From Chiloscyllium plagiosum (lineage: Eukaryota): a DNA stretch of 48,295 nucleotides. The stretch is from contig NC_057719.1 in the NCBI RefSeq assembly GCF_004010195.1, forward strand, positions 41,640,910 to 41,689,204. Direction: 5' to 3'. Below are positions 1,745-46,190 of the stretch, piece after piece. Under the pieces are notes generated by a model. The model made no database searches. It saw only the letters and a program-made list of their open reading frames with translations, and was not told the DNA's origin. A program made the position numbers and the translations under genes. Each line of letters opens with the position of its first letter. The stretch's first letter is position 1.

Positions 1745-1960
1745 TGAAACTTTATTGCTGGAACAGCACAGCAGGTCAGGCAGCATCCAGGGAACAGGAG
1801 ATTCGACGTTTCGGGCACAGGCCCTTCTTCAGGAATCCTGAAGAAGGGCCTGTGCCCGAAACGTCGAATCTCCTGTTCCCTGGATGCTGCCTGACCTGCT
1901 GTGCTGTTCCAGCAATAAAGTTTCAACTCTGATCTCCAGCATCTGCAGACCTCACTTTCT
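1745..1960 (+). mobile_element. Short Penelope-like (family A) terminal-repeat insertion forming a perfect 181-bp palindrome plus a 35-nt tail
   Basis: 1745-1834 is the exact reverse complement of 1836-1925 (1-nt spacer at 1835). Direct repeat CCATTCCATGGATATG at 1731-1746 and 1961-1976. Same sequence family as the 3' end (39641-39770) of the PLE RT element at 36766-39770. Confidence 0.85.
1800..1837 (-). ncRNA. Minimal type I hammerhead ribozyme motif (PLE-type)
   Basis: Minus strand reads GATTC-CTGAAGA-A-GGGC-CTGT-GCCC-GAAA-CG-TC-GAATC: full core, 4-bp stem II, 5-bp stem I (GATTC/GAATC), and palindromic ACGT in place of stem III. Confidence 0.8.
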
Positions 1961-2356
1961 CCATTCCATGGATATGTCTTGTTGATTGATTCCACTGTCT
2001 AGATTCCTTTATTCCTTGTTCTTCTCCAACTTTTATTCCAGACATTCATGATACTCTCTACTAGTTTGATATTGCCAGATACTCAAGCCTCTCCCTTCAC
2101 AATGGACATTCATCTGCAAGATTTTATATTTAGTCCATACTACACACTGGTTCATTCTCATTTGGAATGTCATGGGTAGTACAGGTCACTGCATTCCAGG
2201 AAGGACATTAAGACAGTCAGTGGTGGAACCAACAGCCTCCACTCCCCAATAGTTTTAAGCATCAATAGAAGAGCTTAAGAGGTTTAGCTCCATTGTGTAC
2301 CATGACAATTTCATCCTAAGGCTTGGATGTGATTCTATGCTGCTCCACTTCTGCAG

Positions 2357-2530
2357 GTGGATTAGCTGTCAGCATTACTCAGCCCCAGCTTGGTCAGTTT
2401 CCTTCCTGTGAAATTTCGGAACTGAGCTGTGAGAAGCCATTTAACATGACCCACCAAGAGGAGGTCGGAGATGAAGCTCAGAGAGGGCAGCTGTGTGGAC
2501 AGATCAGTTTTAACTGCTCCACAAAGTATG
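2357..2530 (+). other. Candidate internal exon (174 nt, phase 1-1), product unrecognised
   Basis: Acceptor ...CTCCACTTCTGCAG|G, donor ATG|GTAAGG, open frame (within ORF 2323..2547). No homology recognised. Confidence 0.2.
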
Positions 2531-3139
2531 GTAAGGGTTTGAAATGACCAGGAAAGCCATTGAGGCTGATAATGTCAATAAATTTGAAAAAGAAGAGGAT
2601 AGTTATTTGACAACAAAATCAATTGATTAGTAACTAATAAACAGTGTATTTAATGTGGTGCATAACAGACAGGCCAGATTCCCCCATTCCCTTTACCTCT
2701 CCAATTTTATCTCTTACAAAAATCTAACTTTTTAAAACTCCCTGTGCACCATCTCAATCACACCTTTAACTACTCCACTATCAAGCTCAGCTGGACTTAT
2801 TTATTTGCATTCTCAAAAATTTCTGTTTTTACTCTTTCTATTTTCTCCAGATAAAAAGAATCCTGCTCTGGAAGTCGATGTCCAACTGCATTCAGCTGTC
2901 AGTACATTAAATAGTACAGTTTTTATTTCAGTCTTTAAAAGATGTTCTCCCAGAAAACTTTGTCTTTGTACTCATGCTACTTCTTGCTCTCAGTCTGAAT
3001 TAGAGATGTCTTTAGTTATGCATCTAATTTCTATCCATGAAGTCTATCTTGACACTTTCTTGCTATTTGTGTGGTTTCAGCTCTGACTCTGCTAACACAT
3101 TCTTATCCAGTCTAGACACTTGGGTACCTAACTAGGCTG

Positions 3140-3435
3140 GTGACTGAGTCAGTACCAATGAATGATGTTGGAGGTACTATATCTTACAGGTAAGGCACTG
3201 AACTGACATCCTGTCTGACCTCATGGAGGGAGACCATCACACATGTGTTTCAAAAGATCTCAAGGCACAGATGACTCAACAATCTTCTTTCATGGCCAAT
3301 TGTGGGAGCTTGTTGTGCACAAATTGATTGTTGCATTTATTATGTTATGCAAGAGTGGTTTCACTTCAGAAATATTTTAATTACTGTAAAGCAATTTGGA
3401 ATTCCCTGAGGTCATTAAAGGCATTATATAAATGA
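3140..3435 (+). mobile_element. Ancient DeuSINE-like SINE
   Basis: GTGGGAGCTTGTTGTGCACAAATTGATTG resembles the Deu domain as I recall it; 3' end ...AAAGGCATTATATAAATG. Boundaries approximate. Confidence 0.6.
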
Positions 3436-3872
3436 ACTGGCTATTAATATTCATACGTTCATCAAGTTCCATGATTGCCGGATTGTTTTTCTTTTTCCCA
3501 CTTCACTTGGTTTCACCATTTCCATCACCTCTGTTCCACACTAATGTTTCTGTATTTTCTCTTCAGCAAATCTTTTCTCCGCTAGGCTCTTGTATCCACT
3601 TTTTGCTGCCATCTTCTCTTCCTCCTCAACTAATGAAAGGTTCTGTTGTGCCTTTAACATAATCTGTCAGATCTTCTTCTAAGACATTTAGGCCCTCATG
3701 GAGATAACATGCCTCGAAACAGCCACAAACACTTGCACCACTGCTTTGTGTGCTTCTTATCTGCAACTCAAACTCAGCCCTGGGCAATTCTTGGAACATG
3801 AGATCTACGTTCAAAGGGCTAACCATCTGCAAAATGGCAGGTAGATAATTTCTAACAATTAAACAATTATGT

Positions 3873-4087
3873 GGGCGGCACGCTGGCACAGTGGTTAGCA
3901 CTGCTGCCTCACAGCGCCTGAGACCCGGGTTCAATCCATGCGAAGTTGCCCGTAGTGTTAGGTAAGGGGTAAATGTAGGGGTATGGGTGGGTTGCACTTC
4001 GGCGGGTCGGTGTGGACTTGTTGGGCCGAAGGGCCTGTTTCCACACTGTAATGTAATCTAATCTGTAATGTAATCTAATCTAATCTA
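3873..4087 (+). mobile_element. HE1-type tRNA-derived SINE with internal deletion
   Basis: A box TGGCACAGTGG, B box GGTTCAATCC, CR1-like tail GGGCCGAAGGGCCTGTTTCC, (TAATC)n end. Lacks the central part present in the copy at 30828-31118. Confidence 0.85.
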
Positions 4088-4879
4088 AAGGCTGAATGTC
4101 TGAGGTGACTGGACATTCCAGTGTGGGTGTGTACACCCTCCAAAGTGGTCAACGACTAGGTCAGCTGCCTGTTGGTGGTCCAATACTGGCATATGCATTT
4201 CAAACAGCCAACCAGTGTTTTGTTCCTCAGAAATATTATCCTTCATTCAACATTTTGGTAATAAATATGAATGAAAACCTGTGTAACCAAATTTTAACTG
4301 GCTATTCATGATTCCAATTTGTAAGAAAAAGTGTTACACTTTAACATAATTGCAAGAGAACGCCTTACTATAAATGATCGCAATTTTAGGGAAAACAAGC
4401 ATAGGTATCGTGTGTTCAAGCAACATCTGTCTGAGGAGTTCAATGTATGTTTCTTATTCCCCTTAGTCCTGCCCAAAGCTCTGCTGTGTAACTCAGTATC
4501 GGATTATATTTTGGTAACCACCTCCTGCCTAAGGGAAGCCTATGCAATATCTTCAATGCATCTTGCCAAACAGATCATTGACTATTTATGCAAGCAGACA
4601 GCAAAGAATTATTGATCACTTTGTACTTTTTCATCTACCACCTGCATTTGCTGCTACATTGCTTCTGAACATAGATTTGTGTCACACTGATACCAAGATT
4701 TATTATTCCTGTGGTCAGCAGAGCAGGAGGGCAGAGAATCAATATGTACAAACCACCAGCTAGTTTTGCAGTAAATACAATAACCCATAGACCAATAAAA
4801 TGAGAAACTATTTGAATTTTATTGAATCAGCCACTTGTAAACCTACACTAGTTAATGATGTTTTCTAATTACAAAGCAC

Positions 4880-5510
4880 AAGGAACAACACAGCACAAAA
4901 ACAGGCCCTTCAGCCCTCTAAGCCTGCAGCAACATGTTTTGCCCTTTTGTTACTAAAACTGCCTTCACTTACCAGACCCGGATCACACTATTGCCTGTCT
5001 ATTCATGTATTCGTCCAGGCGGTTCTTGAATGCTGCTATTGTGACTGCTTCCACCGCCTCCTCTGGCAGCATGCTCCAGGCACTCACCGCCCTTTGTGTG
5101 AAAAATATGCCTTGCACATCTCTTTTAAACTTCCCCTCTCGCTTCTTGAACCCGTATCCTTTAGTAATGGACCCTTCCACCCTGGAAAAAAGCCTCTTAC
5201 TTTCCACTCTATCTTATCTTGCCATTCACAATCTTATAAACTTCTATCTGGCCACTCCTCAGCCTCCTGCTTTCCAGTGAAAACCAGTCAATCCAATCTT
5301 TTTTCATAGCTAAAACCCCCCATACCAGGCAACATCCTGGTAAACCTTTTCCATACCTCTCTAAAGCAACCACATCCTTCCGGTAATGTGGTGACTAGAA
5401 CTGTGTGCAATATTTCAAGTGTGGCCTAACTAAAATTCTATAAAGCTGCAGCATAACTTGTCTCTCCTTATACTCAATACCTCTTCTAATGAGGACAAAC
5501 ATGTCATAGG
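4880..5510 (-). mobile_element. CR1 LINE 3' fragment
   Basis: Minus ORF 4983..5207 has FFTQRAVSAWSMLPEEAVEA...FKNRLD, typical of the CR1 ORF2 C-terminus. Confidence 0.85.
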
Positions 5511-6497
5511 CAATAATTAGTTATTGATTTATTACATTTCTTGTGGCAAGATTTCAAAGGAATACAGGTAATCAATACTTGAAGGAGAGATGTACTACAA
5601 TTCCAATATCACTGAATTTTATACACTTCCTTAAAGTTTGGCTGAATTTTTGTACTTATTGACAATGTAAGTATTGCAGGTATGTTTAAAGCCATAAGGG
5701 AGTGACATCTAGATCCCATGTTCCTACTCATGTATCAAGACTGAAAACAGAATCATCAGGGATACAGAGCAGGGTCTTCAGCATATGAGAAAGGAAATAG
5801 TTTACAGATGTTGATGTTGCTAAACATTGGATGAACATGAACCTCCTTATCAAAGTAAACCAAATGAAAAATGTTGAAAGAAATCAGATGCAAGTCATGA
5901 ATCAATTTTATCACAAAGATGCAATTAAAACACAATAAGTTGATAAATGGGATTTTTTATGAACTACAGGAAAGAGTTGAAACATTCGTTAATATTGCAC
6001 AAAAGTGGATTGAAAAGACAAAAAGAATATCCACATAGGGATGGAAATGAAGAGGAAAGTTATTTCTATCAATAAATCAGTAAATGGAGCAAATGTCTAA
6101 GATCTGAAATTTCTGCAGTTGGCTTTCAGGACTGAACTGCAGAGTGTCGACGTTGAAGATTAAAATCATTATTCATGTTGGAATCCATGCTGAGGACCCT
6201 AGGTAATTATAACAACAGCAAAGCACTATGGATTCTAAAGTTCAGCAATAAAATCAGAGAATGTTGAGTTGGAAAGGTTGTGAACTGCCGAAGCAGAAAA
6301 CCAGTTACTGTTCCTTCAGAAAGCTTTGGGTTCTGTTGGGAAAAAAAAGCGAGTGAGTATTTTCATTTAGAGAAACCCACCCCTCAATTTGTTAAACTTG
6401 GAGCTTTAAAAAGTCTTCAGTAGTCATATCCAGGAGCCCTACTGCTGCAGTTGAGGCCAAGCAAGTGAGAAGGCACACACAGGCTGTCTGAAGCATC

Positions 6498-6630
6498 TTT
6501 CCTGATGAAGGGCTTTTGCCTGAAATGTCGATTTTCCTGCTCCTTGGATGCTGCCTGAACTGCTGTGCTTTTCCAGCACCACTCTAACCCAGAATCTGGT
6601 TTCCAGCATCTGCAGTCATTGTTTTTAACC
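6498..6630 (+). mobile_element. Short PLE family A terminal unit with hammerhead motif
   Basis: TTC-CTGATGA(6502)-A-GGGC-TTTT-GCCT-GAAATGTC followed by family A body and tail. Confidence 0.8.
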
Positions 6631-6639
6631 TTCAGAAAG

Positions 6640-7153
6640 GCAATAGCGGGGGTACAGATGAGGTTCACAAGGTTGATTCTAGTGTAGAGGGGATTGGTTT
6701 ATGAGGAAAGGCTGAATAGTCTGGGATTACATTCTTTGGAATTTAGAAGAACGGGGGAGGATCTTAAAGAAACATATAAAATTATAAAGGGAATAGATAA
6801 GATAGAAGTAGAGAGGATGCTTCCACAGGCAGATGAAACTAGGACAAGAGGGCATAGCCTCAAAATTAGGGGGAGGAGATTTAGGACTGAATTGAGAAGT
6901 AACTTCTTCACCCAGAGAATTGTGAATCTATGGAATTCCCTGCCCAGTGAAGCAGTTGATGTTTCCTCAGTAAATGCTTTTAAAGCTAAGATAGATAATG
7001 TTTTGAACAGTAAAGGAATTAAGGGTTATGGTGAATGGGTGGGTAAGTGGAGCAGAGGCCATGAAAAGATCAGCCATGGCCTTATTGAATGATGGAGCTG
7101 GCTCGAAGGGTCAGATGAACTACTTCTGCTCCTAGTTTCTGTGTCCTTATGTT
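6640..7153 (+). mobile_element. CR1 LINE 3' fragment
   Basis: ORF 6694..7092: YEERLNSLGLHSLEFRR...TRGHSLK...FFTQRIVNLWNSLP. Confidence 0.9.
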
Positions 7154-7694
7154 TACAAATCACTGTGACTTCACCCTACTGTCACTATAATTTTCTCTAG
7201 CACTACAATCCTCCGGGGTATCTGTTTTCTTCAATTTTATTCTCTTTCACACATCTAGTTTTACATCATTCTGCTGCAAGCATCCATGCCTTCAGCTGCT
7301 AACTCTGGAAATAAGGCCCCTCAGGCACTTCCCTGCCAAACCTGATCACATCTCTCTCCTTTACTAAAATACTTCTTATAAACCTACTGTTGTATGAGCA
7401 ATCTTAATCATTGCTCATCATGTTGTGTGAACTCTTTATGTTGTTGTTCACTATGAGGTAAATTTGCTGCAAAACTCCTCATCTATCAGAAGCATTCCTG
7501 GCAGTTACCATTTTCCTCAATAGTATTGCAGAGCTGCTGCTCCTCTAAGTTATGTCCTCCATCTTTTAAAGAGACGGCAGCCCCAGTGGCAACTGATGTG
7601 TTGCCTGACCCCCGGAAAAGCAGGTGAGATCAGGAGCCTAAGGAATTAGACGCAAAGAAGGTGCAAGGTAGTTGGAGAGTAGCAAATGGGGCAT

Positions 7695-7835
7695 AAAAGC
7701 AAAATACTGGGGAGCAGGAAATCTGAAAGAGTTCAGAAAATGCTGGCAACATTGAGCAGGATGGCAGCGTCCGTGGAAAGAGAAAAATAAAGTCCACCTT
7801 TTATGTTGCAAAGGGCACTTCTTCAGACTGAAGGA
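7695..7835 (-). mobile_element. Old, diverged PLE-type terminal unit related to family A
   Basis: Resembles the reverse complement of family A (TGCTGG...AGCAGG..GGCAGC) with a residual CTGAAGA on the minus strand near 7826. Similar remnants at ~27890-27940 and ~29015-29095. Confidence 0.45.
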
Positions 7836-7859
7836 AGGCAGAAATGTGAATTTGTAAAT

Positions 7860-15960: not shown

Positions 15961-16014
15961 ATTGAAGGTACTAGGCTAAGCTGTCCTTAGCACTGCACAT
16001 TTTTCATGTTTGTA

Positions 16015-16252: not shown

Positions 16253-16304
16253 TCTACAGCAGCTCGTGCACCCATGTGAAGGCAATGGGTAAATGGGAAG
16301 GGAT

Positions 16305-20317: not shown

Positions 20318-21592
20318 TCGTAGTTCCTCTGTGCTGCAGTGTGTGGTGGCTCAATGAAATAATGTTCTAATGCAGCTTCATTTGTGGTGTTGGGATGATT
20401 GCTTTTGTAGTTCAGTATTTGGTCCGTATGTGTTGTTTTCCTGTACACACTGGTTTGAAATCTCCCATTGGCTGTTCGCTCTACTGTGACATCTAGGAAT
20501 GACAGTTTGTTGTTGTTTTCCTCCTCTTTAGTGAATTTTATGCCAGTAAGGTTATTATTGATCGTCTTGAAGGTTTCCTCTAATTTGTTTTGTTTAGTGA
20601 GGACAAAGGTGTCATCCATGTAGAAGACTCAAAGTTTGGGTTGGATGGTTGGCAGAGCTCTTTGTTCAAATCTCTGCATTACTGCCTCTGCTGAGAACCT
20701 TAATATCGGAGATCCCATGGCTGTTCTGTTAGTTTGTCTGTAGGTTTTGTTGTTGAAGGTAACTAGAAGCTGCATTAGAACATTATTTCAACAAGCCACC
20801 GCACACTGCAGCACAGAGGAACTTTGAAGAGCAGAGGAAAATCACCTATACAGTGGATTAAAAAAACAATGGGTATCCAATGAACACAGTCCACCAATTT
20901 CTCAGCAACAAACCCAAACAAGGAGAAAAAACACGTCCAGAAACCCAAGCCACTCTCCTCTACATCAAAGACATCTCAGAAATGACCGTGAGACTACTCA
21001 GACCCCTTGGCATCATGATGGCCCACAAACCCACCAACACACTAAAACAGCAGCTAATGAACTTGAAAGACCCTATACAGGCAATAAGCAAAACTAATGT
21101 CATTTGCAAAATACCTTGCAAGAATTGTAACAAACACTACATTGGACAAACAAGCAGAAAACTAGCTACTAGGATACATGAACATCAACTAGCCACAAAA
21201 AGACATGACCCACTCTCACTAGTAACCTTACATACAGATAAGGAAGGACACCACTTCGACTGATTCAACACATCCAACCTAGGACAAGCCAGATAGAGAC
21301 GCGCACGAGATTTCATCAAAGCATGGCATTCCAACCGGAACTCTATCAACAAACGCATTGACTTGGATCCTATTTACCACTCGCTGTGAAAAAGAACAGG
21401 AAATGATGTCACCACAGGACATAACATCACCACAGGAAATGGCATCACTAACCCAACAAAACCTAAGCACATGAATAGAAAGTGGGCCATACCACCAGAG
21501 CTTTATCTGGAGGCTCACTGATGATCTTACCTAGTATGGTGACAAAACATCTGAAAAGGAACTTTCCAGCTCAGCGAGCAAACCTACATCCA
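20318..21592 (+). mobile_element. Penelope-like element (family C), 5'-inverted: RT C-terminus inverted, GIY-YIG endonuclease forward
   Basis: Minus 20318-20762 encodes PMGSPI / YMDDTF / LSFLDV / VYRKTTHT. Plus ORF 20880..21263 has NVICKIPCKNCNKHYIGQTSRKLATRIHEH (GIY-YIG). Decayed hammerhead at 21515-21554. Confidence 0.9.
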
Positions 21593-23263: not shown

Positions 23264-23397
23264 ATTCCTGATGAAGGGCTTTTGCCTGAAACGTCGATTT
23301 TCCTGCTCCTCGGATGCTGCCTGACTTGCTGTGCTTTTTCAGCACCACTCTAATCGAGACACTGATCTCCAGCATCTCCAGTCCTCGCTTTTGCCTC
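23264..23397 (+). mobile_element. Short PLE family A terminal unit with hammerhead motif
   Basis: ATTC-CTGATGA(23268)-A-GGGC-TTTT-GCCT-GAAA-CG-TC-GATT, then body and tail. Confidence 0.8.
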
Positions 23398-23707: not shown

Positions 23708-23838
23708 GATTCCTGAAGAAGGGCTTATGCCCGAAACGTCGATTCTCCTGTTCCATGGATGCTGCCTGACCTGCTGCGCTTTTCCAGCAACACATTTCCA
23801 GCTCTGATCTCCAGCATCTGCAGACCTCACTTTCTCCA
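23708..23838 (+). mobile_element. Short PLE family A terminal unit with hammerhead motif
   Basis: GATTC-CTGAAGA(23713)-A-GGGC-TTAT-GCCC-GAAA-CG-TC-GATTC. Direct repeat CATGAT at 23705-23710 and 23839-23844. Confidence 0.85.
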
Positions 23839-25048: not shown

Positions 25049-25162
25049 GTGTTTTCTTACTGACAGGACTTTACGGTTTTGATCAAAACTTAATTGACAT
25101 TGATTATATCCTCTGACGAAATGCACTAAATTCTTTGCATGGACAGGCCAATCTAATAGCAG

Positions 25163-25915
25163 ATGGTGAGGACTGCAGATACCCGAGAGTCAGCATTGAT
25201 AAAGTGTGGTGATGGAAAAGGCAGAGCAGGTCAGGCAACATCTGAGGAGCAAGATCGAAGACGGCTACAGAGAGTGGTGAACTCGGCCCGAACAATCACA
25301 AAGGCCAACCTGCCATCTATAGAATCCATCTACCAGACCTGCCAGCATTCTCAAAGATCCATCCCACCCTGGCAATGCTTTTCGACAACCTCTACCATCA
25401 GGGAGAAGGTACAGAAACCTGAAGACATGCACCAGGCGGTTTCAAAACAGTTTCTACCCCACTGTTGTTAGAATACTGAATGCTGCCAGCATTCTCAAAG
25501 ATCCATCCCACCCTGGCAATGCTTTTCGACAACCTCTACCATCAGGGAGAAGGTACAGAAACCTGAACACATGCACCAGCCGGTTTCAAAACAGTTTCTA
25601 CCCCACTGTTGTTAGAATACTGAATGGACTCACAAACCCTTAACATTCGCCTCTACCTGTGTTTTTATTTTTGCCTATTTTTGTTTACCTATTATTTCCT
25701 TATCCATGCTACTTAACTATGTGATCTGCCTGTATTGCTCGCAAGACAAAGATTTTCACTGTGCCTTGGTACATGTGACAATAAATTCAATTCAATTCAA
25801 GGGAGTTAACATATCGGGCATAACCTTGATGGAGGGTTAAGCCCAAAATGTTGACTCTCTTGCTCCTCAGAGGCTGCCTGACCTGCTGTGCCTTTTCCAG
25901 CGCCACACTTTATCA
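25163..25915 (-). mobile_element. Older family A-like fold-back PLE unit, split by a Rex1 insertion
   Basis: 25198-25253 plus 25801-25826 is the inverted copy of ~25827-25915. Tail lies at the left end. Diverged TSD CCAATCTAATAGCAGATG (25148) / CCAATCTAGTGCAAATG (25918). Confidence 0.75.
25254..25800 (+). mobile_element. Rex1/Babar LINE 3' end with internal 144-bp tandem duplication
   Basis: RRRLQRVVNSARTIT, ILKDPSHPG, LPSGRRYR, NSFYPTVVRILN motifs. AATAAA plus (TTCAA)n tail. Repeat units 25339-25482 and 25483-25626. Confidence 0.85.
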
Positions 25916-26249
25916 GCCCAATCTAGTGCAAATGTTAGTTTACAGTCTGAATGTCCTGCCACAATTTTCTGAATCATGTTATCTATTATCTATTATAAAT
26001 CATGGATATTTTCACAAAGCCCATTGCTAAAATGGCTTTCTTTCTTTTGCCTTATTCATAGCTATTATTTTCAAATTCACCATTAGCAAATTATCAGTGG
26101 GAATCTTTGCCAGTGTCCCAGCTCCAATACCAATTTATTTTTCCATTACCCATCCACAATTAATTTCTTATCTTGACCATCAATATTATTACTGACTGGC
26201 AAAATATGGTGAAATGAAAATCTTTTTTCTACATCCCAGTCTTTTGGTC

Positions 26250-28840: not shown

Positions 28841-29096
28841 TGTGAAAGTGAGTTTTGGCAAACACGTTATCAAACACTATGCAGGAAATAGAAACAATGA
28901 AAGTGAACAAGTGAAAAGATTAAAATGGAAATCCCATCAGAGAGCAAAGCAGAACTTCCTCAAGGTGGACATAATTGAAGAGAAGTGATTGTGAATTAAA
29001 CACTCAATAAAAGTAAAATGTTGTGGATGTTGGAAATCAAAAATAATAACAGAAAATGCTGGTGAGCTCAGTAGGTTTGGCAGCATCTGTGGGGAT

Positions 29097-29848
29097 GGAA
29101 CTATACAGAGCAGCGGAAAATCACCTATCCAGTATATTCAAAAAGAATGGGTACCCAATGAACACAGTCCGTCGATTTCTCAGCAACAAACCCAAACAAG
29201 CAGATAAAACACATCCAGAAACCCTATCCACTCTCCCCTACATCAAAGATATCTCAGAAATGACTGCCAAACTACTCAGACCCCTTGAGCATCATGGTAG
29301 CCCACAAATCCACCAACACACTAAAACGGCAGCTAATGAACTTGAAAGACCTTATACAGACAACAAGCAAAACTAATGTCATTTACAAAATACCATGCAA
29401 CGACTGTAACAAACACTACACTGAACAAACAGGCAGAAATCTAGCCACCAGGATACATGAACATCAACTAGCCACAAAAAGACATGACCCTCTCTCACTA
29501 GTATCCTCACATACAGATAAGGAAGGATGCCACTTCGACTGGGACAAGCCAAACAGAGACACGCACGAGAATTCCTAGAAGCATGACATTCCAACTGGAA
29601 CTCTATCAACAAACATATTAAGATAGACCCCATTTACCACCCCCTGTGAAAAAGAATAGGAAATGACATCACCACCGGAAATGATGTCACCACAGCAGGT
29701 GACATCACCAGCACAAAGAAACCCAAACATATAAATAGAAAACAAAAATCAACTGTGCTTCGCCTGGAGGTCCACCGAAGATGTTACCTAGTAGGGTGAC
29801 AAAACATCTGGAAATGAACCTTCCAGCTCAGTGAGCAAACCCACATCC
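29097..29848 (+). mobile_element. Penelope-like element (family C), 5'-truncated GIY-YIG end
   Basis: NVIYKIPCNDCNKHYTEQTGRNLATRIHEH; colinear with 20817-21592; decayed hammerhead at 29771-29812. Confidence 0.9.
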
Positions 29849-30384: not shown

Positions 30385-30651
30385 AAGTTCAAAATCACAC
30401 CACACCAGGTTATTGCCCAACAGGTTTAATTGGAAGCACACTAGCTTTCGGAGGTTGGAGTGTTGCTCCTTCAGCAGCTGGTAGTGGAGGGCTCAATCCT
30501 AACACACAGGATTGAGCCCTCCACTACCACCTGATGAAGGAGCGACGCTCTGAAAGCTGGTGTGCTTCCAATTAAACCTGTTGGACTATAACCTGGTGTG
30601 GTGTGATTTTGAACTTTGTACACCCTAGTCCAACACCGGCATCTCCAAATC
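30385..30651 (+). mobile_element. Short PLE-type (family B) fold-back unit with hammerhead motif and ~35-nt tail
   Basis: Inverted arms 30385-30500 / 30508-30616 with loop AACACAC. CAC-CTGATGA(30531)-A-GGAGC-GAC-GCTCT-GAAA-GC-TG-GTG. AAAATCAA at 30379-30386 and 30652-30659. Confidence 0.8.
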
Positions 30652-30733
30652 AAAATCAAATTCAGGTGCTTCCAAAGGTTTCACCTGTTAAATAAATAAT
30701 GCAGCATTCACCTTCTTTGGGTTACTAATACTA

Positions 30734-31384
30734 AGTTAAAAATCACACAACACCAGATTATACTCCAAGAGGTTTATTTGGAAACACTAGCTTTCGGAGT
30801 GCTGCTCCTTCATCTTTTAAAAAAGTTTAGATTAGATTAGATTACAGTGTAGAAACAGGCCCTTCGGCCCAACAAGTCCACACCGACCCGCCGAAGCGAA
30901 ACCCCTTACCTAACACTACGGGCAATTTAGTATGGCCAATTCACCTGACCCTGCACATCTTTGTGATGTGGGAGGAAACCGGAGCACTCGGAGGAAACCC
31001 ACGCAGACACGGGGAGAACGTGCAAACTCCACACAGTCAGTCGCCTGAGACGGGAATTGAACCCGGGTCTCTGGCGCTGTGAGGCAGCAGTGCTAACCAC
31101 TGTGCCACCGTGCCGCCCAAAGTTCTGCAATTTACATATGAAAAAACTGAAACCAACATGTTCATTCTAAAAGATGAGAGACTTAACAAACAATCCAGGT
31201 CTTTTTCAATATATAATTTCAGTTACATCACACTGTAAACCTTTGCTGTAAATTCTGTCTTGCGATCTTATACACCACAACCACCTGATGAAGGAGCAGA
31301 GCTCCGAAAGCTAGTACTTCCAAATAAACCTGCTGGACTATAACCTGGTGTTGTGTACTTTTTAACACTGGCATCTCTAAAGCA
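30734..31384 (+). mobile_element. PLE-type family B unit with inverted terminal arm, interrupted by an HE1 SINE
   Basis: 30734-30814 is an inverted copy of ~31287-31366. Hammerhead AC-CTGATGA(31285)-A-GGAGC-AGA-GCTCC-GAAA-GC-TA-GT. TSD TTACTAATACTA (30722-30733) / TTACTAATGCTA (31385-31396). Confidence 0.8.
30828..31118 (-). mobile_element. Young HE1-type SINE
   Basis: Full head GGGCGGCACGGTGGCACAGTGG, V-like domain, (TAATC)n tail, CpGs retained, TSD AAAGTT (30822-30827, 31119-31124). Confidence 0.9.
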
Positions 31385-36765: not shown

Positions 36766-39700
36766 ACCGTACAGACTACAGATTCAAAACCACCAGAAAC
36801 AGTTCTCCTTCCGGATCCTCCGCTCCACACTCACAGCAATGCTCCGGCACCGAACCTCTCTACAGTCAGCCCTGCCTCAGCTGAGGGCCACACTCTCTCA
36901 GAACTGCAAAGGACCCACTCTATACTATATTCTAAGAAGAATTCATACTCTCAACAAACAGTATGTCAACACCATCTCAAACATCAAAAACTGTAAGTAC
37001 AACAAACTTTTACACACACCACCTCCATAACCAGTGCTCCTCAAACATTCCAGAGGATTCCCCCGACCTCTGGAACTGCTCAGATGCCATTAGCCATGTG
37101 GCTGGTACAGCTACTATCCCCACGGTGATCGATGACATCACTTCCACCCCCATCATGGCCACTTACGCCCCTCACAATTCCTTATGCATCACACGTAACA
37201 TCACTTTTGCCTCCCACGTCATCACTGACGCCACGCGTTCAGCGACTTCCGCCCCCCTCTACTGCTGTGTTCACCACCACTTCTGCCCCCACCAATGCCA
37301 CTCACCTGCATTCTGGCCAAGTTTTCACCATCCCTCCAGACCTCCCCCTTACTGAGGACGAAAGATCAGTCCTCAGCAAAGGACTCACCTTCATCCCCCT
37401 CCGCCCACACATCAATGAATTTAATACACATCGTACGTCGATCCCTTCTTCTGCCACCTCCGCCTCCGAGCTTACTTTTACAATCAGGACTCCCGCCCAC
37501 CTTCCGAGGACCCCTTCGCCCGCCTCCAACACACTCCATCCACCTGGACACCCCGTGCTGGCCTCTTACCTGCCCTTGACCTCTTCATTTCCAACTGCCA
37601 TGGAGACATTAACTGCCTCAAATGTCTATCCCCCCTCCCCCATTCCAACCTCTCAACCTCACAACACGCTGCCCTCCACTCCCTCTGCTCCAATCCAACC
37701 TCACCATCAAACCAGCGGATAAAGGGAGCGCAGTGGTAGTCTGGTGCACTGACCTCTACACCGCTGAAGCCAGATGCCAACTCAAAGACACCTCTTCCTA
37801 CCGCCCCCTCGACCGTGACCCCACCCCCCATCACCAAACCATTATCTCCCAGACGATACAGAACTTCATCACCTCAGGAGATCTCCCACCCACAGCTTCC
37901 AACCTCGTACTCCGGGAACCCCTCACCGCCCGATTCTAACTCCTTCCCAAGATCCACAAGCCTGACCATCCTGGCTGACCCACTGTCTCAGCCTGCTCCT
38001 GCCCCATCGAACTCACCTTCACCTACCTCGACACTATCCTATCCCCCTAATCCACGAATTCCCCACATATGTTCGAGACACCACCCACGCCCTCCACCTC
38101 CTCTAAGACTTCCGTTTCCCCGGCCCCCAATGCCTCATCTTCACCATGGATATCCAATCCCTCTACACCTCCATCCGCCATAACCAGGGCCTCCAAGCCC
38201 TCCGTTTCTTCCTCTCCCGACATCCCCAACAGTACCCTTCCACTGACACTCTCATTCGTTTGGCCGAATTGGTTCTCACCCTTGACAATTTCTTCTTCGA
38301 ATCCTCCCACTTCCTCCAGACCAAAGGGGTAGCCATGGGCACACGTATGGGCCCCAGCTATGCTTGTCTCTTTGTTGGCTACGTAGAACAGTCCATCTTC
38401 CATAGTTACACCTGCACCGTTCCCCACTTCTTCCCCCGCAACATTGATGACTGCATTGGCGTCACCTCGTGCTCCCGCGAGGAGGTTGAGCAATTCATCA
38501 ACTTCACCAACACATTCCNNNNNNNNNNNNNNNNNNNNNNNNNNNNNNNNNNNNNNNNNNNNNNNNNNNNNNNNNNNNNNNNNNNNNNNNNNNNNNNNNN
38601 NNNNNNNNNNNNNNNNNNNNNNNNNNNNNNNNNNNNNNNNNNNNNNNNNNNNNNNNNNNNNNNNNNNNNNNNNNNNNNNNNNNNNNNNNNNNNNNNNNNN
38701 NNNNNNNNNNNNNNNNNNNNNNNNNNNNNNNNNNNNNNNNNNNNNNNNNNNNNNNNNNNNNNNNNNNNNNNNNNNNNNNNNNNNNNNNNNNNNNNNNNNN
38801 NNNNNNNNNNNNNNNNNNNNNNNNNNNNNNNNNNNNNNNNNNNNNNNNNNNNNNNNNNNNNNNNNNNNNNNNNNNNNNNNNNNNNNNNNNNNNNNNNNNN
38901 NNNNNNNNNNNNNNNNNNNNNNNNNNNNNNNNNNNNNNNNNNNNNNNNNNNNNNNNNNNNNNNNNNNNNNNNNNNNNNNNNNNNNNNNNNNNNNNNNNNN
39001 NNNNNNNNNNNNNNNNNNNNNNNNNNNNNNNNNNNNNNNNNNNNNNNNNNNNNNNNNNNNNNNNNNNNNNNNNNNNNNNNNNNNNNNNNNNNNNNNNNNN
39101 NNNNNNNNNNNNNNNNNNNNNNNNNNNNNNNNNNNNNNNNNNNNNNNNNNNNNNNNNNNNNNNNNNNNNNNNNNNNNNNNNNNNNNNNNNNNNNNNNNNN
39201 NNNNNNNNNNNNNNNNNNNNNNNNNNNNNNNNNNNNNNNNNNNNNNNNNNNNNNNNNNNNNNNNNNNNNNNNNNNNNNNNNNNNNNNNNNNNNNNNNNNN
39301 NNNNNNNNNNNNNNNNNNNNNNNNNNNNNNNNNNNNNNNNNNNNNNNNNNNNNNNNNNNNNNNNNNNNNNNNNNNNNNNNNNNNNNNNNNNNNNNNNNNN
39401 NNNNNNNNNNNNNNNNNNNNNNNNNNNNNNNNNNNNNNNNNNNNNNNNNNNNNNNNNNNNNNNNNNNNNNNNNNNNNNNNNNNNNNNNNNNNNNNNNCTC
39501 CTCTCTGACCTATCACCTCCATCCCCACCCCCACCCCCATTCACCTATTGTACTCTTTGCTAACTTCTCTCCAGCATATATATATATACATACACACACA
39601 CACTCTCTTATCTCTCCACCCTGGACGCTCCCTGCCTCTATTCCTGATGAAGGGTTTTGCCCGAAACGTCAATTTTCCTACTTCTCGGATGCTGCCTGAC

Positions 39701-39770
39701 CTGCTGTGCTTTTCCAGCACCACACTGATCTAAACTCTGGTTTCCAGCATCTGGGGTCCTCACTTTGCCT
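36766..39770 (+). mobile_element. Penelope-like retroelement (family A), large inactivated copy spanning the gap
   Basis: SVLSKGLTF, IKPADKGSAVVVW, MDIQSLYTSI, QTKGVAMGTRMGPSYACLF, RNIDD motifs with stops and frameshifts. 3' end carries hammerhead CTGATGA(39644)...GAAACGTC. Continuity across the gap is assumed. Confidence 0.85.
38519..39497. other. Assembly gap (979 N)
   Basis: Run of N. Confidence 1.
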
Positions 39771-40744: not shown

Positions 40745-40905
40745 TAGCATTGGAATTCCCTCCCGAATAGCACTGTGGGTCTATTTAAAGCACATAGACT
40801 GCTGCAGTTTAAGAAAGCGGCTCACCACCATCTTCTCAAAGGCAACTATGGATGAGCAATAAACGCTGGCTAGCTAGTGATGCCTATGTCCCACGAGTGA
40901 ATTAT
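40745..40905 (+). mobile_element. LINE 3' end (CR1-like), same family as 44385-45165
   Basis: GCAGTTTAAGAAAGCGGCTCACCACCATCTTCTCAAAGGCAACTA...GCAATAAACGCTGGC. Confidence 0.6.
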
Positions 40906-41301
40906 AGAAAATGTCATTCATACCTAATCTCACTTCATTGATATGCATTTTTCTATTCTCCCACTTGCCAGAGAGGAACTAGATGGTGACAGTTCTTGAT
41001 ATGGAACTCAGAGCAGGAACCTAGTTACTGCCACACTCCTGCAGGCCTCCATCTTGAACATCAGTCTTCAATGTCTCAGGGTATGCTCCATGGGCAGTGA
41101 CCACCTATACCCTTCTCCATTCATGAAGGTTGGCATTGCACACTCAGCAGCTTCATCACGTCACCATGACATATCCCTGAGCCATTTACAATACAGTTCC
41201 CTACTTCAGTGCTGAACAATAAAATCCATCAGCACCATACATTGGAATACTGCTTCCAGGACAGTTTGAGAGCAGGGACCAGGCACCTATCTCATAGATT
41301 C

Positions 41302-41543
41302 TGGATTAGTGGTAGAGCACAGCAGTTCAGGCAGCATCAAATGAGCAACGAAATCGATGTTTCGGGCATCTTCCGCCTCGGAACACTTCAACCCCAGGGC
41401 ATCAATGTAGACTTCAACAGTTACGCTTCAGGCTCTCTGCCTTTATTCCTGATGAAGGGCTTTTGCCCGAAATGTCAATTTCGCTGCTCCTTGGATGCAG
41501 CCTGAACTGCTGTGCTCTTCCAGCAACTGTAGTCATTGTTTTT
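41302..41543 (+). mobile_element. Mosaic short PLE family A insertion
   Basis: 17-bp direct repeat ACCTATCTCATAGATTC (41285-41301, 41544-41560). Contains an inverted arm, a fragment coding IFRLGTLQPQGINVDFNS, then the hammerhead unit (CTGATGA at 41449). Confidence 0.85.
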
Positions 41544-41769
41544 ACCTATCTCATAGATTCAACCAGTGTCCACCTTCACCGTCCTTGCTTACTGTCTGAG
41601 CTTTCACTCACTTTGTACCTATTTGGATTCTTACAGCGCCACTGATTTGCTTAGCTTGCCTTTTTGAGCTTGGCCATCTCAGCCTCGGTTTAAAAGCTCA
41701 CAATACTTCTGTCTTTCCTTGCCTTTTAGCCATACTCAAAGAACGCTACGTTAGTTAAGTGGAGAAAAA

Positions 41770-42495
41770 TTGCTGAAAATTGCAACTCAAAGGGACTTGG
41801 AGGTGTTTGGTGCACAAAACACAGAAGACTAGCACAGAGATGCAGCAGGTAATCAAGAAGACTAGTGGAATGTCAACCCTTATTTCAAGGGGTTTGGAGC
41901 ATAAGAGTAGGGAGGTCCTCCATCAACTGTACAGGGTGCATCTGGAATACTGCAAGCAGTTGTGGTCCCCTTATTTAGGGCAAGATATAATTTCAGTGGA
42001 GACAGTTCAGAGAGAAGGTTCACTAGGATGACTGGTGGTATGGAGGGATTGTCTTACAAGCAAAGGTTAAATAAGTTGGGACGCTCCTCACTAGAGTTTA
42101 GAAGCATGAGATGGCGATCTCATTTGAAACATATAGGATTCTTAAGGGGCTTGACAGGGTAAATGCTGAGAGGATGTTTCCCCTCATGGGAGAGTCCAGG
42201 ACCAGAGGGCATAGTCTCAGAATAAAAGGGCGCCAATTTCAGAAGGAGATGAAGAGGAATTTCTTCTTTCACATAGTTGTGAGTCTTTGGAACTCAGAGA
42301 GCTGTTGAGGCAGAGTCCTTGTGATTGTTTAATACTGAGATAGACAGTTTCTTGATCAGTGAAGGACTCAAGCGCTACGGGGAAAGAGCAGAAAGGTGAA
42401 TGTGAGAAATGTCAGATCAGCCACGAAGCTATTGAATAGTGGAGCAGGCTCAAGAGGCCAAATGGCCTCGTCCTGTTCCATTTCTATGGTCTTGT
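41770..42495 (+). mobile_element. CR1 LINE 3' fragment
   Basis: HLEYCKQLWSPY, LSYKQRLNKLG, TRGHSLRIKG motifs. Confidence 0.85.
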
Positions 42496-42834
42496 GATCA
42501 AGCAGCTTCTCAGAACAAATGGGTGTCGGCAGTCATCAGTTGTGAATACATTGCTACCTTATCATGCTAGAGGCATTTCACACCTGCAGCATGTACCAGT
42601 ATGATATGTGGGTAACACATTTTATGTGGTTCAACCCACGGGACATGTCTCAATGTCCTCGGTCAGGCCATCAGTCAGGGGGTCCCTGCAAAGTAAAATC
42701 TGATAATAGTCCAGGACTTGGAGACAGTCAGTCAGTTATTTGGGGCAGTGAACATCAAGGAGGTCCACATCACTACAATCTGGGAATAGACTGTGGTCAG
42801 ACCTGCAGGTCCAGTGCTACCACAGTGGGGCATT

Positions 42835-43030
42835 TGTTTTTATTCGTACGTCGGACTTGGGTGTCTCTGGTTAGGCCAGCATTTATTACTCTTTTATAAT
42901 TGCCCAGAGAACACTCAGTCAACCATGTTACTGTAGTTTTGGAGTCACATGTAAGCCAGACTAGGGAAGGTTGGTAGAATTTCCTCTTCCTTGTAGGGCA
43001 CTAGTGAACTCAATGGGTTTTCATAACAAT
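42835..43030 (-). mobile_element. SINE 3' part (family of 18052-18182)
   Basis: GGCCAGCATTTATT...TGGAGTCACATGTAAGCCAGACTAGG. Confidence 0.6.
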
Positions 43031-43068
43031 CAACAACTGTTACGTGGTTAGCATAAGGCTGACCAGTG

Positions 43069-43345
43069 AGGCAGCATGGTGGCTTAGTGGTTAGCACTGC
43101 TGCCTCATAGCAACAGAGTTCCAGCCTCAAGTGACTGTCTGTGTGGGGTTTGCACATTCGCCCTAGGTCTGCATGGGTTTCCTCCCACAATTCAAAGATA
43201 TGCAGGTCAGGTGAATTGGCCGTGCTAAATTGCCCGTAGTGTTAGGTGCATTAGTCAGAGGGAAGTGCGTCTGGGTGGGTTACTCTTTGGAGGGTCGGTG
43301 TGGACTGGTTGGGCCGAAGGGCCTATTTCCACACTGTCGGGAATC
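43069..43345 (+). mobile_element. HE1-type SINE
   Basis: GGCAGCATGGTGGCTTAGTGGTTAGCACTGCTGCC head; GGGCCGAAGGGCCTATTTCCACACTGT tail. Confidence 0.85.
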
Positions 43346-44107
43346 GAATTGAGATTTTAGTGTTCCAGTCGATGTCTGTTCATAGATTCACATGAATTCC
43401 ACAGATTCACCAACCTCTGGGAGAGGATCTTGCTCATCTGTGTCTGTAATGGGTAATCCCTTACTCTGAGGTTATTCTTTCTGGTCCTAAACTATATCAC
43501 AATGGGAAACAATCTTGTTGCTTGTCCTCTGTTATGTCTCCAAAAGAATCTGTTTATTTCAATAAGGTCACCTCTCATTCTTCTAAACTCCACTGACTAC
43601 TGGCCCAATCTACTCAACCTCTCCTCCCATGACAACCTCTTCATATCTTCAATCAACTTGTGTTAATCAAATTGTGTGGGAGGAATACAACCATCAATGT
43701 TGAGCACCACAAACAGAACAGGACTAAATTGACTCCAACAATCATGAACTGGGTGCAACGTTCACTCATTGACCACAAGATTGTTGTTGAACAAAAGGAA
43801 AGCAGACTCCATCTGTTCACAGAAGCAAACATGATGTTTGTCCACTTGTTTTCTTTTTCACTTTTGCTATTGCTCAATAAAAGTAAAAGCTTCAAAAATT
43901 TGAAAGCTTTCCAGTGTGTGATAACCCCACAATGAACAATGACATGATGTCATACTACAATAGATGTTAGGGAAAGAGGAGCATTCACTTCACTAGGGTT
44001 CGGAGATGGGATAATGCTGAGGATGGATAACTTGTGTGGGTTAGATCTTACATCTGCAGTTACAATTACGGCTAAAACAGTAATAAATGCATGGATGTAC
44101 GCTTATA

Positions 44108-44331
44108 CATGCAGGGAAAACAGCCTGTTCCGCCTCTCCCTATAGCTCAAATCCTCCAATCTTGGCATCATCCTTGTAAATCTTTTCTGAACCCTTTCAA
44201 GTTTCACAACATCTTTCCAATAGGAAGGAGACCAAAATTGCACGCAATGTTCCAACAGTGGCCTAACCAATGTCCTGTACAGTCGCAGCATGACCTCCCA
44301 ACTCCTGTACTCAATACTCTGACCAATAAAG
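44108..44331 (-). mobile_element. CR1 LINE internal fragment
   Basis: LYRTLVRPLLEHCVQFWSP...LERVQKRFTRM. Confidence 0.9.
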
Positions 44332-44384
44332 GATGCAATCAAATGCAATCTTCTGGAGACATATGTAGAAGTTATTTTGCACTT

Positions 44385-45165
44385 TTTGCTTATTAATTGA
44401 CAGGACGTGGATGCTGCTCACTGTGCTGACATTTATTGACGTGCCCTGGAGAAGGTGGTTCTTGAACCACTGCAGCCCATGGTAAGTAAGTAGATTCACA
44501 ATGCATGCATGAAAGATAGTGAAGGAATGGCAATTATATTTCCAAATTAGGAAGATGTGTAGTTTGGAAGGGAACTTGCAGGTGATAGCGTTTCCATGTA
44601 TCTGCTACCCTTGTCTTTCCAAATGGTAGGGACTGTGGTTTGAAAGGTGTTACCAAAGAAGCCTTGGTGAGGTACTGTAGTGCAATAAACACTGCTGCCA
44701 CTGAGTATCAGTGCTGAAGGAAGTGAATGTTAAAGGTGGTGCATGGAGATTACTCAAACTGACAGCATTGTGCTGGATATTGTGAGCTTCTTGAGTATTG
44801 TTGGAGCTGTCTTCATCCAAGTGAGTGGGAAGTATGCCACTACACCCCTGACCAGTGTTTCCACTAATTTTCTTTCCAGATGCTAGGTCGCTGAGTCTCT
44901 GAGGGCAGCGACTTCTGGAAGCGGAGGTCAATGCCGTGGTCAGCGTGCTGACATCACTGTGTGTGGAACCATGCAGCAGCTGTGTGCATGTGTAGCCCCA
45001 AAACTGAGAGGGAAAATTGCGACTGACTTGTGCCTTGTAGGTGGTGGAAAGGCTTTGGAGAGTCAGGAGCTGAGTTAGTCACTACCAAAATTCTAACCTT
45101 TGACCTGCTCTTGTACTCACCATATCGATATCACTGGTCTAGTTCAATGCTGTCTCCCAAGATGT
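44385..45165 (-). mobile_element. Decayed LINE 3' region (CR1-like)
   Basis: Reverse complement of the 40745-40905 tail at the left end. GACTTGTGCCTTGTAG (YKAQV-like on the minus strand) lies further in. Confidence 0.6.
44853..45019. mobile_element. 167-bp hAT-like MITE inserted in a LINE
   Basis: Imperfect TIRs CAGTGTTTCCACTAATTTT / AAACTGAGAGGGAAAATTG. 8-bp TSD CCCCTGAC (44845-44852) / CGACTGAC (45020-45027), 6/8 match. Confidence 0.6.
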
Positions 45166-45669
45166 TCACCTAGCAATCTCCAACCAACTCCAGATGAATA
45201 ACCAATACATTAATTTTGCTGATGATTTAATATTGACAGGTGACATTTTATCTTTCCTTCGAATTGTATTATATAATTTTGAATGTCCACCAGGAAGGGG
45301 AAGGGCAGAACAGGAGCTAAACATCTCATATGATGTGATGAGCCCCATAGAGACACTACACCTTGAACACTATCTTACAGCATCAGCTAGCACCCATGAC
45401 GTTCCATCTTCAGCATGTCCATAATCCATTCAATGTAAAACTAAGAGGGAATTAATGATGGTGTGAATTCCTGAATATATGCAATAATAGAATGGGATAA
45501 ACCTATCTTTTTCAGGATTTAGTTTGTGTAAACAAGGTTAGTTTATTTCTAAAGAGAAGGTTTAAAATATAACCCTAACCCTTACAGCATGTGTCGAAAT
45601 CAAACTCAATTCCAGAAGAAGTAAATGAGTTCCAACCAACAATACCATTAAAGAAATGGGGAATGGGAA

Positions 45670-46190
45670 CACTATGGTTTTGTTACTGGACTATTAATCC
45701 ATTATCTCAGATTAGTGCTCTAGAGAAATGCGTTCAAATTCAACAGAGGTTTTACATTTAATTAGTTAATAAAGCGGCAATGAAAAGTTGATGTGATGTG
45801 AATAATAAATGATCATGAAACTATCAAGTTGTTGTGAAGACCCATCCAGGTCATTCATAACCTTTAGAGAGGAGCCCAGCTATCCACTTCCGGTCTACAT
45901 GTGACTCTAGCTGTACAACAATGTCATTGACTCCAGTTGCCTTCTGTCACAACCAATGATAAAGTGACCATGTGATAAAAAGCACTCACTGCCAGATGTG
46001 GCTCAAAAAGGCAGCTCACTGGCACTGAAGAAGGGCTAATGCCCGAAACATCGATTCTCCTGTTCCCTAGATGCTGCCTGATCTGCTGCGCTTTTCCAGC
46101 AACACATTTCCAGCTCACTGGCACTGCCTCACGGCAAAGTCAAGATGGACGATAAAAGTGAACTTTGCTCACATGCCAAACATGAATGAA
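45670..46190 (+). mobile_element. Old tRNA-derived SINE hosting a family A unit
   Basis: TTACTGGACTATTAATCC...GTTCAAATTC head; GGTCTACATGTGACTCTAG body shared with 18052-18182. Confidence 0.55.
46025..46116 (+). mobile_element. Tail-less ~90-bp family A hammerhead unit
   Basis: CTGAAGA-A-GGGC-TAAT-GCCC-GAAACATC. 16-bp direct repeat CAGCTCACTGGCACTG at 46012-46027 and 46111-46126. Confidence 0.85.

Follow-up and report, generated by a model that had tools for sequence, protein, structure and literature searches.

The window, by which we mean the whole stretch of 48,295 nucleotides analysed here (Chiloscyllium plagiosum, contig NC_057719.1, positions 41,640,910 to 41,689,204), carries eight dispersed loci of a short repeat unit built around a hammerhead-ribozyme core, one of them at the 3′ end of a decayed Penelope-like element (PLE). 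Positions within the unit are numbered from +1, the A five bases 5′ of the hammerhead core. The features are as follows.

1745..1962, inverted pair: minus-strand arm without tail at 1745-1836, beginning at +1; plus-strand arm with tail at 1836-1962
1730-1746 and 1960-1976, target duplication of the locus at 1745, 17 bp
6499..6628, plus strand, single tailed unit: begins at +2, core at 6502, no above-chance duplication
23264..23396, plus strand, single tailed unit: begins at +1, core at 23268, no above-chance duplication
23708..23837, plus strand, single tailed unit: begins at +1 (23709) with a preceding G; duplication of just 6 bp
25163..25916, old inverted pair: tailed minus-strand arm at 25163-25254, resuming at about 25800-25825
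25255-25799, unrelated insertion of ~550 bp that splits this pair
25822-25916, plus strand, tail-less arm of the same pair, core at 25826 decayed
25148-25155 and 25918-25925, duplication around the pair, 8 exact bases
36766..39770, plus strand, decayed 5′-truncated PLE: coding from about codon 80, three stops and frame changes
37431-38517, 38519-39497 and 39640-39770, parts of this PLE: reverse transcriptase region, N gap and tailed terminal unit
41302..41545, composite: minus-strand arm without tail at 41302-41369, then a 57-bp piece of the endonuclease C-terminus at 41368-41424, ~20 bp of the parent 3′ end, and a forward arm that starts at +1 (41445), has lost an internal piece and retains the end of the tail
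41285-41301 and 41544-41560, duplication of the locus at 41302, 17 bp
46025..46116, plus strand, single tail-less unit beginning at +5
46012-46027 and 46111-46126, duplication of the locus at 46025, 16 bp

All eight loci carry the unit that the sequence-only reading had assigned to them, and the core, that of the minimal type I hammerhead known from PLE terminal repeats, is kept in seven, being decayed at the 25163 locus. The loci at 1745, 25163 and 41302 are head-to-head pairs and not single units. That reading had also described the units as bounded by target-site duplications, which holds in part: duplications are clear at three of the eight (17 bp at 1745 and 41302, 16 bp at 46025), weak at 25163 (8 exact bases) and 23709 (6), and missing at 6499, 23264 and the long PLE. 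A profile made from six window copies gave 13 matches in the window, all eight named loci included, and a fixed-length core pattern with at most one mismatch gave 15 against 5.7 expected, a number reached in none of 100 shuffles. A structural descriptor placed cores at 1838(+), 1832(-), 6502, 23268, 23713, 39644, 41449 and 46025; an Rfam search of the window returned no match at E up to 1.

The core reads CUGANGA ... GAAA ... UH, carries one additional base ahead of stem II, and has a G10.1-C11.1 pair. Its variation falls where it had been said to be tolerated, at position 7 (A/T) and in the stem II loop, which is 3 nt long at 39644, and the palindromic helix III remnant is likewise present, as ACGT in the family of these loci (family A) and as AGCT in a second family. 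Metazoan PLE terminal repeats (pLTRs) contain a minimal hammerhead of the same kind, as described in the available text of Cervera and De la Pena (2014, PMC4209133): the core agrees with that of family A, including the extra base between positions 9 and 10.1, the G10.1-C11.1 pair and the palindromic helix III remnant. Helix I, expected to have 4-5 bp in this class, gives a mixed picture: the locus 1745 subfamily has 4 bp, and the other subfamilies have only 2 bp followed, after a mismatch, by 1 more bp. In co-folding the active dimer was not the form of lowest energy, and the folding of the leader was not significant (z -1.56). In 24 hand-picked matches stem II is 87.5% paired, and nine cells differ on both sides (none of 500 shuffles). 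As the rows are related and come from a descriptor that requires pairing, these figures lend weak support to maintenance of stem II by compensatory change; core invariance in the same alignment is circular.

In 100 randomly chosen stretches, 963 kb in all, there were 158 unit arms at 122 loci. The very high copy number that had been predicted is borne out: the density is ~127 loci/Mb, for a genome estimate of about 400,000-430,000, and the arms alone make up ~1.7% of the sampled DNA. The structural descriptor, with all families pooled, matched 67 times in the 963 kb and 0-2 times in five shuffles; this is ~70/Mb, compared with about 4,000 matches per genome in coelacanth and 9,000 in Xenopus in the accessible part of PMC4209133.

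The candidate autonomous parent that had been suggested for the window is not autonomous: the PLE there starts near codon 80, has three stops and frame changes, lacks an upstream unit, and carries a terminal unit just 81-89% identical to the other units. Nor does the window by itself establish that the unit ends a PLE, because a 979-base N gap separates the reverse transcriptase from the terminal unit. Other copies confirm it. A unit lies 3′ of the reverse transcriptase on the same strand in eight of 11 relatives of the window PLE (two of the eight partial), and three long copies (L328, L331 and L332) link the two without a gap. The long copies have endonuclease and reverse transcriptase upstream of the unit, and the terminal unit of L328, a young copy, is 100% identical to the forward arm of locus 1745. 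A single frame of L328 matches RVT_1 (E 6e-08) and, at the C-terminus, a GIY-YIG domain (E 4e-04, just under the Pfam cut-off); Pfam returned nothing for two other reverse transcriptase/endonuclease fragments in the window. In L328 and L331 a CX4CXXC motif stands between reverse transcriptase and endonuclease, an instance of the CX2-5CxxC linker that marks Neptune and Nematis in the available text of PMC8557442. We favour Neptune over Nematis, an assignment based on this linker and on reports of Neptune in vertebrates. Among 14 copies picked for long open frames from 150 listed reverse transcriptase matches, we found no intact full-length element.

In tandem copies the tail of the unit runs on into an ATG and a reading frame, the ATG lying ~40 nt beyond the tail, and family A units pass gradually into PLE coding sequence at both flanks. 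Further features of endonuclease-containing (EN+) PLEs are present as well: a pLTR, an optional 30-40 bp tail, and inverted and partial-tandem forms. Judged from these sequences, the unit is the terminal repeat plus 5′ leader of Neptune-type PLEs and not a separate family. A candidate for a separate non-autonomous element of 600 bp was explained by a longer stretch of the parent PLE 3′ end paired head to head.

The 5′ ends of the units are narrowly placed. Of the 158 sampled arms, 74 start between -5 and +11 and 36 continue upstream; no start falls between -15 and -32. Genome-wide, exact clean junctions number 3,439 at +1, 37 at +29, 130 at +33 (the cleavage site) and 84 at +37, the +33 junctions being 26 times rarer than those at +1; the four 31-mers behind these counts are similarly common (8, 8, 10 and 13 in the sample). 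The base before +1, a C in the parent, is G in 2,747 and T in 515 of 16,912 cases in the youngest subfamily; one base further in, the counts are G 660 and T 1,625. The second subfamily, for which only G and C were counted, gave G 430 and C 826 and did not reproduce the G excess, and 15 of 20 inspected C loci there were junctions. Counted by eye, 32 of the 100 +1 junctions listed represent a single inverted junction, where the other arm can be the source of the G.

Such ends might be thought the product of ordinary 5′ truncation, in which copying from the 3′ terminal repeat halts at the hairpin of the hammerhead, terminal-transferase activity adds the G, and no transcript starts at +1. Truncation at the 5′ end is typical of PLEs (PMC8557442, available text), the region has its stable hairpin in stem II, and both the arms that run on past +1 (36 of 158) and the unclear G excess of the second subfamily would fit, but a stall would be expected at the 3′ foot of stem II (~+25), not 12 nt past its 5′ foot. 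Upstream of -15 the ends also disappear, a G excess is seen at +1 alone, and the joins of 19 of 25 partial tandems fall exactly on +1; we consider this explanation unlikely. The units are instead likely to be, for the most part, DNA copies of the first 95-130 nt of PLE mRNA. Earlier they had been offered as stereotyped abortive PLE insertions; stereotyped short PLE insertions they appear to be, whereas "abortive" is likely the wrong word, because most ends resemble a natural RNA end and not a random failure.

The 3′ ends form two groups, one at about +80 to +99 and one at +124 to +135 with the tail. Single units without a tail (46 of 86) are about as common as tailed ones, but in inverted pairs the 35-nt tail is on exactly one arm in 34 of 36 cases, on neither in two, and never on both. 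Either arm of a pair can be the one that reaches +1. Target duplications of 12-18 bp surround 13 of 15 inverted pairs; duplications of at least 11 bp were found at only seven of 37 single units. The 30 single units with no long duplication might suggest solo terminal repeats that stay behind when full-length elements recombine or are deleted, and recombination has been suggested for rotifer solo repeats in the available text of PMC3846280. We regard this origin as scarcely credible here, as it accounts neither for a start precise to the base with an added G, nor for a tail on one side only, nor for head-to-head pairs that lie within intact duplications.

The arms of an inverted pair are discordant at six of 174 diagnostic site comparisons, with 59 expected under random pairing, which indicates that they share one source. 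Query-biased matches had hinted at two different RNA templates for the arms, an idea unsupported by this unbiased test; two RNAs from one locus are possible as templates. Arm concordance fits equally well a fold-back, in which one cDNA primes itself to produce the inverted arm, with no second primer, and the endonuclease resolves this arm at the tail boundary; self-priming and endonuclease resolution have been proposed in the available text of PMC3846280 and PMC8557442, and the junctions are often small hairpins. For the inversion step, the only step it concerns, we hold fold-back to be a serious alternative and still the less probable one: the tail-less 3′ ends of 46 of 86 single units show that this site works without a partner arm, +1 is reached by either arm, and both strands were extended in vitro in the system of PMC11167929, as far as its available text describes.

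Partial tandems carry the same 5′ end. In 19 of 25, coding sequence is joined straight to +1, from 15 different donor points, the preceding base being C in 13, G in five and A in one, and the spacers are varying coding pieces of 144-556 nt. Because four pairs among the 19 have a donor point in common, spread of some composites as whole units is possible; the inverted arm lies at the same position in seven of 20 longer copies, with the junction identical in the four compared. Recurring composite junctions are what a non-autonomous retrozyme- or SINE-like family would also leave, one that was excised by the hammerhead, circularised, and spread with borrowed PLE enzymes. The excess of units over reverse transcriptase fragments in the sample (122 loci to 7) and the proposed derivation of retrozymes from PLE terminal repeats (Li et al., bioRxiv 10.64898/2026.07.22.740005, available text) lend this possibility some appeal, as do RNA ends at the cleavage site in the U6 fusions described below. 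The non-LTR retrozymes of that report resemble family A in their type I hammerhead, their derivation and their many dispersed monomers; they differ in needing a tandem repeat with at least two consecutive hammerhead units, while family A occurs singly, inverted, or as partial tandems with variable coding-sequence spacers. The 122 loci include no monomer arrays (the five same-strand neighbours within 700 bp have no like ends), cleavage-site junctions number 130 against 3,439 at +1, and the units lack the downstream template sequence needed by the lizard protein of PMC11167929, if that need, described in its available text, can be transferred here. The retrozyme-like reading, one of the two originally put forward, is thus largely refuted, and we think it very improbable.

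The idea that 5′ ends generally peak at the cleavage site was considered and rejected: 11 of 158 arms start at +33 to +38, yet genome-wide +33 exceeds its neighbours only 1.5-3.5-fold, and many +33 junctions are microhomology junctions. The pattern behind the +33 count excluded a T two bases upstream and was blind to U6 fusions. Among 20 U6 copies examined of 48 listed, three are fused to the unit, and all three junctions lie at +33, which suggests that the hammerhead may occasionally cut in vivo. In U6/L1 chimeras, which RtcB ligation produces (Moldovan et al. 2019, PMC6789731, available text), full-length U6 is similarly joined to a retroelement RNA end, a would-be 5′-OH, but the L1 junctions vary, whereas the three seen in family A all fall at the cleavage site. 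In RNA, one raw-read run with coverage had both strands present and no pile-up of starts or ends, and no circular joint was listed in one poly(A)-selected run, ~2% of it read, from a library type ill-suited to circles.

We think it probable that most units are made anew at each site, by target-primed reverse transcription running from inside the RNA to a likely capped 5′ end. Transcription would start at +1. The PLE protein would nick both target strands, 11-18 bp apart, and each nick would prime at one of two internal start sites ~35 nt apart, so that the cDNA would reach the cap after 95-130 nt as a strong-stop-like product. This cDNA could then follow one of three routes: (a) it joins the far target side, giving a single unit; (b) it is linked head to head with a second cDNA, and an inverted pair results; or (c) it jumps to a point further downstream in the RNA, where copying continues, and a partial tandem results. 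In most templates the hammerhead is predicted to stay uncut, while some RNAs would be cut in vivo. For a lizard PLE, Poseidon of Anolis (PAc), the available text of Frangieh et al. (2024, PMC11167929) reports that in vitro two internal start sites downstream of the hammerhead bound the tail, that both strands are nicked and extended, and that uncut RNA is the main template; we propose a similar pair of sites here. PAc belongs to a different clade, and its hammerhead overlaps the start codon, in contrast to the ATG of family A ~40 nt past the tail; the available text also states that no reads were found at the cleavage site, which in family A is marked by the U6 fusions.

Solo and inverted PLE hammerheads are already published. 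Those of PMC4209133 were mostly single, with some opposite-strand pairs, and were interpreted in its available text, which maps no end positions, as truncated PLEs; family A looks alike. Insertions of EN+ PLEs (PMC3846280 and PMC8557442, available text) share with family A the inverted pLTR, the one-sided 30-40 bp tail, the partial tandems and the target duplications, but in family A the smallest version dominates, and its 34 of 36 one-tailed pairs and 19 of 25 tandems joined at +1 point to a fixed RNA end. A literature search with limited coverage of subscription journals returned no report of these end patterns.

As a repeat family, these units are ordinary for a PLE-rich genome. How PLE terminal repeats are regenerated and why tandems form has been stated to be an open question (PMC2377424), and in vivo cleavage by PLE minimal hammerheads was left unshown in the available text of PMC4209133 and PMC11167929. 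Family A yields predictions precise to the base: a cap at +1, start sites near +95 and +130, jumps from +1, and a 5′-OH at +33. More tentatively, and with our own judgment inclined slightly against it, the whole PLE cycle may be preserved in several hundred thousand insertions, comprising the +1 cap, two leader priming sites, an obligatory strong-stop jump from the cap so that the body of the element is copied, and U6 fusions that would record germ-line hammerhead cutting; if true, a single cap-jump step would account for ends in inverted orientation, for a tail on one side only, and for partial tandems in which the promoter is regenerated. If the units are indeed copies of the leader, they would be a natural record of how a poorly understood PLE copies itself.

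The repeat that the sequence-only reading claimed at eight loci (1745, 6498, 23264, 23708, 25163, 39641, 41302 and 46025) is real: scanning the window with a profile of six of its own copies gave 13 matches, all eight loci included, and a fixed-length pattern of the hammerhead core gives 15 matches there against 5.7 expected. Rfam returned no match in the window. The core is intact at seven loci and decayed at 25163, which is interrupted by another insertion; head-to-head pairs make up three of the eight. That target duplications bound the units holds for the three loci with long ones (16–17 bp) and, in short form, for two more; none was seen at three. Weak profile matches at 7705–7826 and 29024–29094 (− strand) are likely older relatives of this repeat, family A, and a LINE-like 3′ fragment (25255–25799) that carries a 144-bp direct repeat internally and ends in a tail of short repeats lies inside an old inverted pair.

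Of 11 sequences related to the window's reverse transcriptase (RT), 8 have the unit downstream on the same strand (in two of the 8 it is partial), and in three long Penelope-like elements (PLEs), L328, L331 and L332, RT and unit are joined gap-free, so that the unit does end PLE RT elements, as had been claimed. L328 and L331 read RT, CX4CXXC linker, GIY-YIG domain, an arrangement that PMC8557442 describes for Neptune and Nematis. In tandem copies the tail, an optional ~35-nt 3′ extension, continues to an ATG ~40 nt on and then a long frame; because the unit stands both downstream of RT and ahead of this frame, it serves as the element's 3′ terminal repeat and also as its 5′ leader. The window's own PLE (36766–39770), proposed as an autonomous parent, begins near codon 80, is interrupted by three stops and by frame changes, and cannot fill that role. 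Its unit is 81–89% identical to the other seven window units; the element is a decayed sibling. The unit at 1835 matches the end of L328 at 100% identity. The PLE frames of L324 and L328 contain in-frame internal tandem repeats (in L324 a 26-residue unit, many times), either a real expansion or an assembly artefact.

Very high genomic copy number had also been predicted, correctly. One hundred evenly spaced 10-kb stretches (963 kb excluding N) held 158 arms, or unit copies in one orientation, at 122 loci, which is 127 loci per Mb (bootstrap 103–152), a count that takes in some older relatives and drops 10 of 168 arms under an identity or length cut. Extrapolation to about 3.4 Gb gives roughly 430,000 loci (350,000–520,000). 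The source genome (G000) is 3.56 Gb in size and, judging by its SINEs, may be that of a shark. A single exact 40-mer occurs 16,912 times genome-wide, and the 963-kb sample has RT fragments at 7 loci.

With positions counted from the A that precedes the core by five bases (+1), 74 of the 158 sample arms begin at −5 to +11, six at −8 to −14 and none at −15 to −32; 36 begin farther upstream and 42 downstream of +12. Clean junctions (an exact 31-mer with three non-parent bases ahead, the four 31-mers being about equally frequent) number 3,439 genome-wide at +1, 37 at +29, 130 at +33 and 84 at +37. Among 30 loci with a coding-sequence start, a second unit follows close behind in 25; 19 of these start exactly at +1, from 15 different donor points 144–556 nt into the element, and the other six keep the parent 3′ end (one), start near +10 (one) or start at +33 to +43 (four). 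The youngest subfamily's parent has C before +1, within a pyrimidine-A-pyrimidine context that we take to resemble the initiator consensus. Genome-wide, G stands before +1 in 2,747 of its copies and T in 515; one base further in, the figures are 660 and 1,625 respectively. In 20 loci with G, the flanking sequence is unrelated or is an inverted arm, and only 3 have another G one base upstream. Untemplated 5′ G has been taken as copied cap in L1 work (PMC9341517). Against this reading, 32 of 100 listed +1 junctions are, by eye, one inverted form in which the G is possibly templated, although with both palindromic forms set aside G is still the most frequent base (30 G, 15 A, 10 T). Also against it, C precedes +1 in 13 of 19 tandem junctions, and a second subfamily, its parents being mixed, gave 430 G and 826 C. 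On balance, a transcript with a capped start at +1 is likely. At 23708–23748 the hammerhead's ACGT (+28 to +31) lies close to the position that PMC2377424 gives for a similar downstream promoter element of Penelope; we would call this a resemblance only. In the RNA read run X19, reads come from both strands, their starts and ends do not pile up, loose ends are found both at +1 (in 104 reads) and where the tail stops, and depth beyond the tail is about 100-fold lower. These reads are passengers in host transcripts and carry no start-site information.

The 3′ ends are bimodal: 74 sample arms end between +76 and +99 and another 74 between +116 and +135, and the two groups correspond to the absence and presence of the tail. 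Inverted pairs, called by an ad hoc distance rule (n = 36), combine a tailed and a tail-less arm in 34 cases, neither arm tailed in 2 and both in 0; single units are tailed in 40 cases and tail-less in 46. Duplications of 11–18 bp flank 13 of 15 pairs and 7 of 37 singles, 20 of the 52 short loci in all; among 52 controls, 2 have a duplication, of 9–10 bp. Of 174 diagnostic comparisons between the arms of 40 young pairs, 6 disagree; random pairing would give 59, and the background is 1.7%. Both arms of a pair share one source: a single RNA that was copied two times, two RNAs transcribed from the same locus, or fold-back copying. An inverted arm also stands at the same position in 7 of 20 longer copies (L103–L122); the four compared have a common junction that lies ~200 bp upstream of +1 and includes a 15-nt loop, the tail being on either side. 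This recurrent junction could mark another fixed RNA end or a hot spot for fold-back, or belong to a composite that is spreading.

The family A motif fits the minimal hammerhead described in PMC4209133, in agreement with the assignment to the PLE type. Stem II shows compensatory changes across families, in rows that are related and were picked by a descriptor that demands pairing; outside the locus 1745 subfamily helix I is weak, and in co-folding prediction the lowest-energy fold is not the active dimer. Since the core is complete in most inserted units, most templates were presumably uncut, as in vitro for a lizard element (PMC11167929). Of 48 matched U6 copies, 20 were examined; three, of different sequence variants, are fused to family A, all at +33, just past the predicted cleavage between +32 and +33 (one of the three was purposely included in the 20; another, L352, was not preselected). 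None of the 20 is joined at +1, though +1 junctions are 26 times commoner than those at +33. This pattern fits ligation to a 5′-OH end, and U6 ligation to such RNA ends is described in PMC6789731; template switching to U6 would likewise require an RNA end at +33. Other U6 fusions (L338, L341, L342, L345, L350, L353, L354, L355, L347 and L351) join, by eye, a tRNA-like start (1), the start of the common SINE (7) or the PLE endonuclease region (2). Separately, G000:C16:42817618-42818027, in the source genome, is a 47-bp tandem array of a segment starting at the cleavage site, with 8 clean-junction matches at +33.

Two further hammerhead families occur in the window:

21003–21591 and 29282–29848: two pieces of another PLE family, with GIY-YIG-like frames at 20862–21263 and 29264–29578
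31279–31321 (and 30385–30814): third hammerhead family, with an AGCT palindrome instead of ACGT

The first two fragments, which we presume to be of Poseidon type, end in a hammerhead unlike that of family A, its stem II being longer. The AGCT family has 7 matches in the 963-kb sample and occurs in inverted form too.

A non-autonomous retrozyme-like family had been one suggested reading; it does not pass the tests that define retrozymes. In the literature, partially covered, we found no published report of the end statistics or the U6 fusions. The analysis establishes what the unit is, how abundant it is, where it ends and the rule by which its arms pair. As to mechanism, we consider it likely that a transcript with a capped start at +1 is copied from two nicks, each priming at one of two internal sites, and that the cDNA then joins or jumps at the cap. 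Use of two internal sites and extension on both strands have been established in vitro for a PLE of a different clade (PMC11167929). Such a model would provide a route to partial tandems, the origin of which is left open in PMC2377424.
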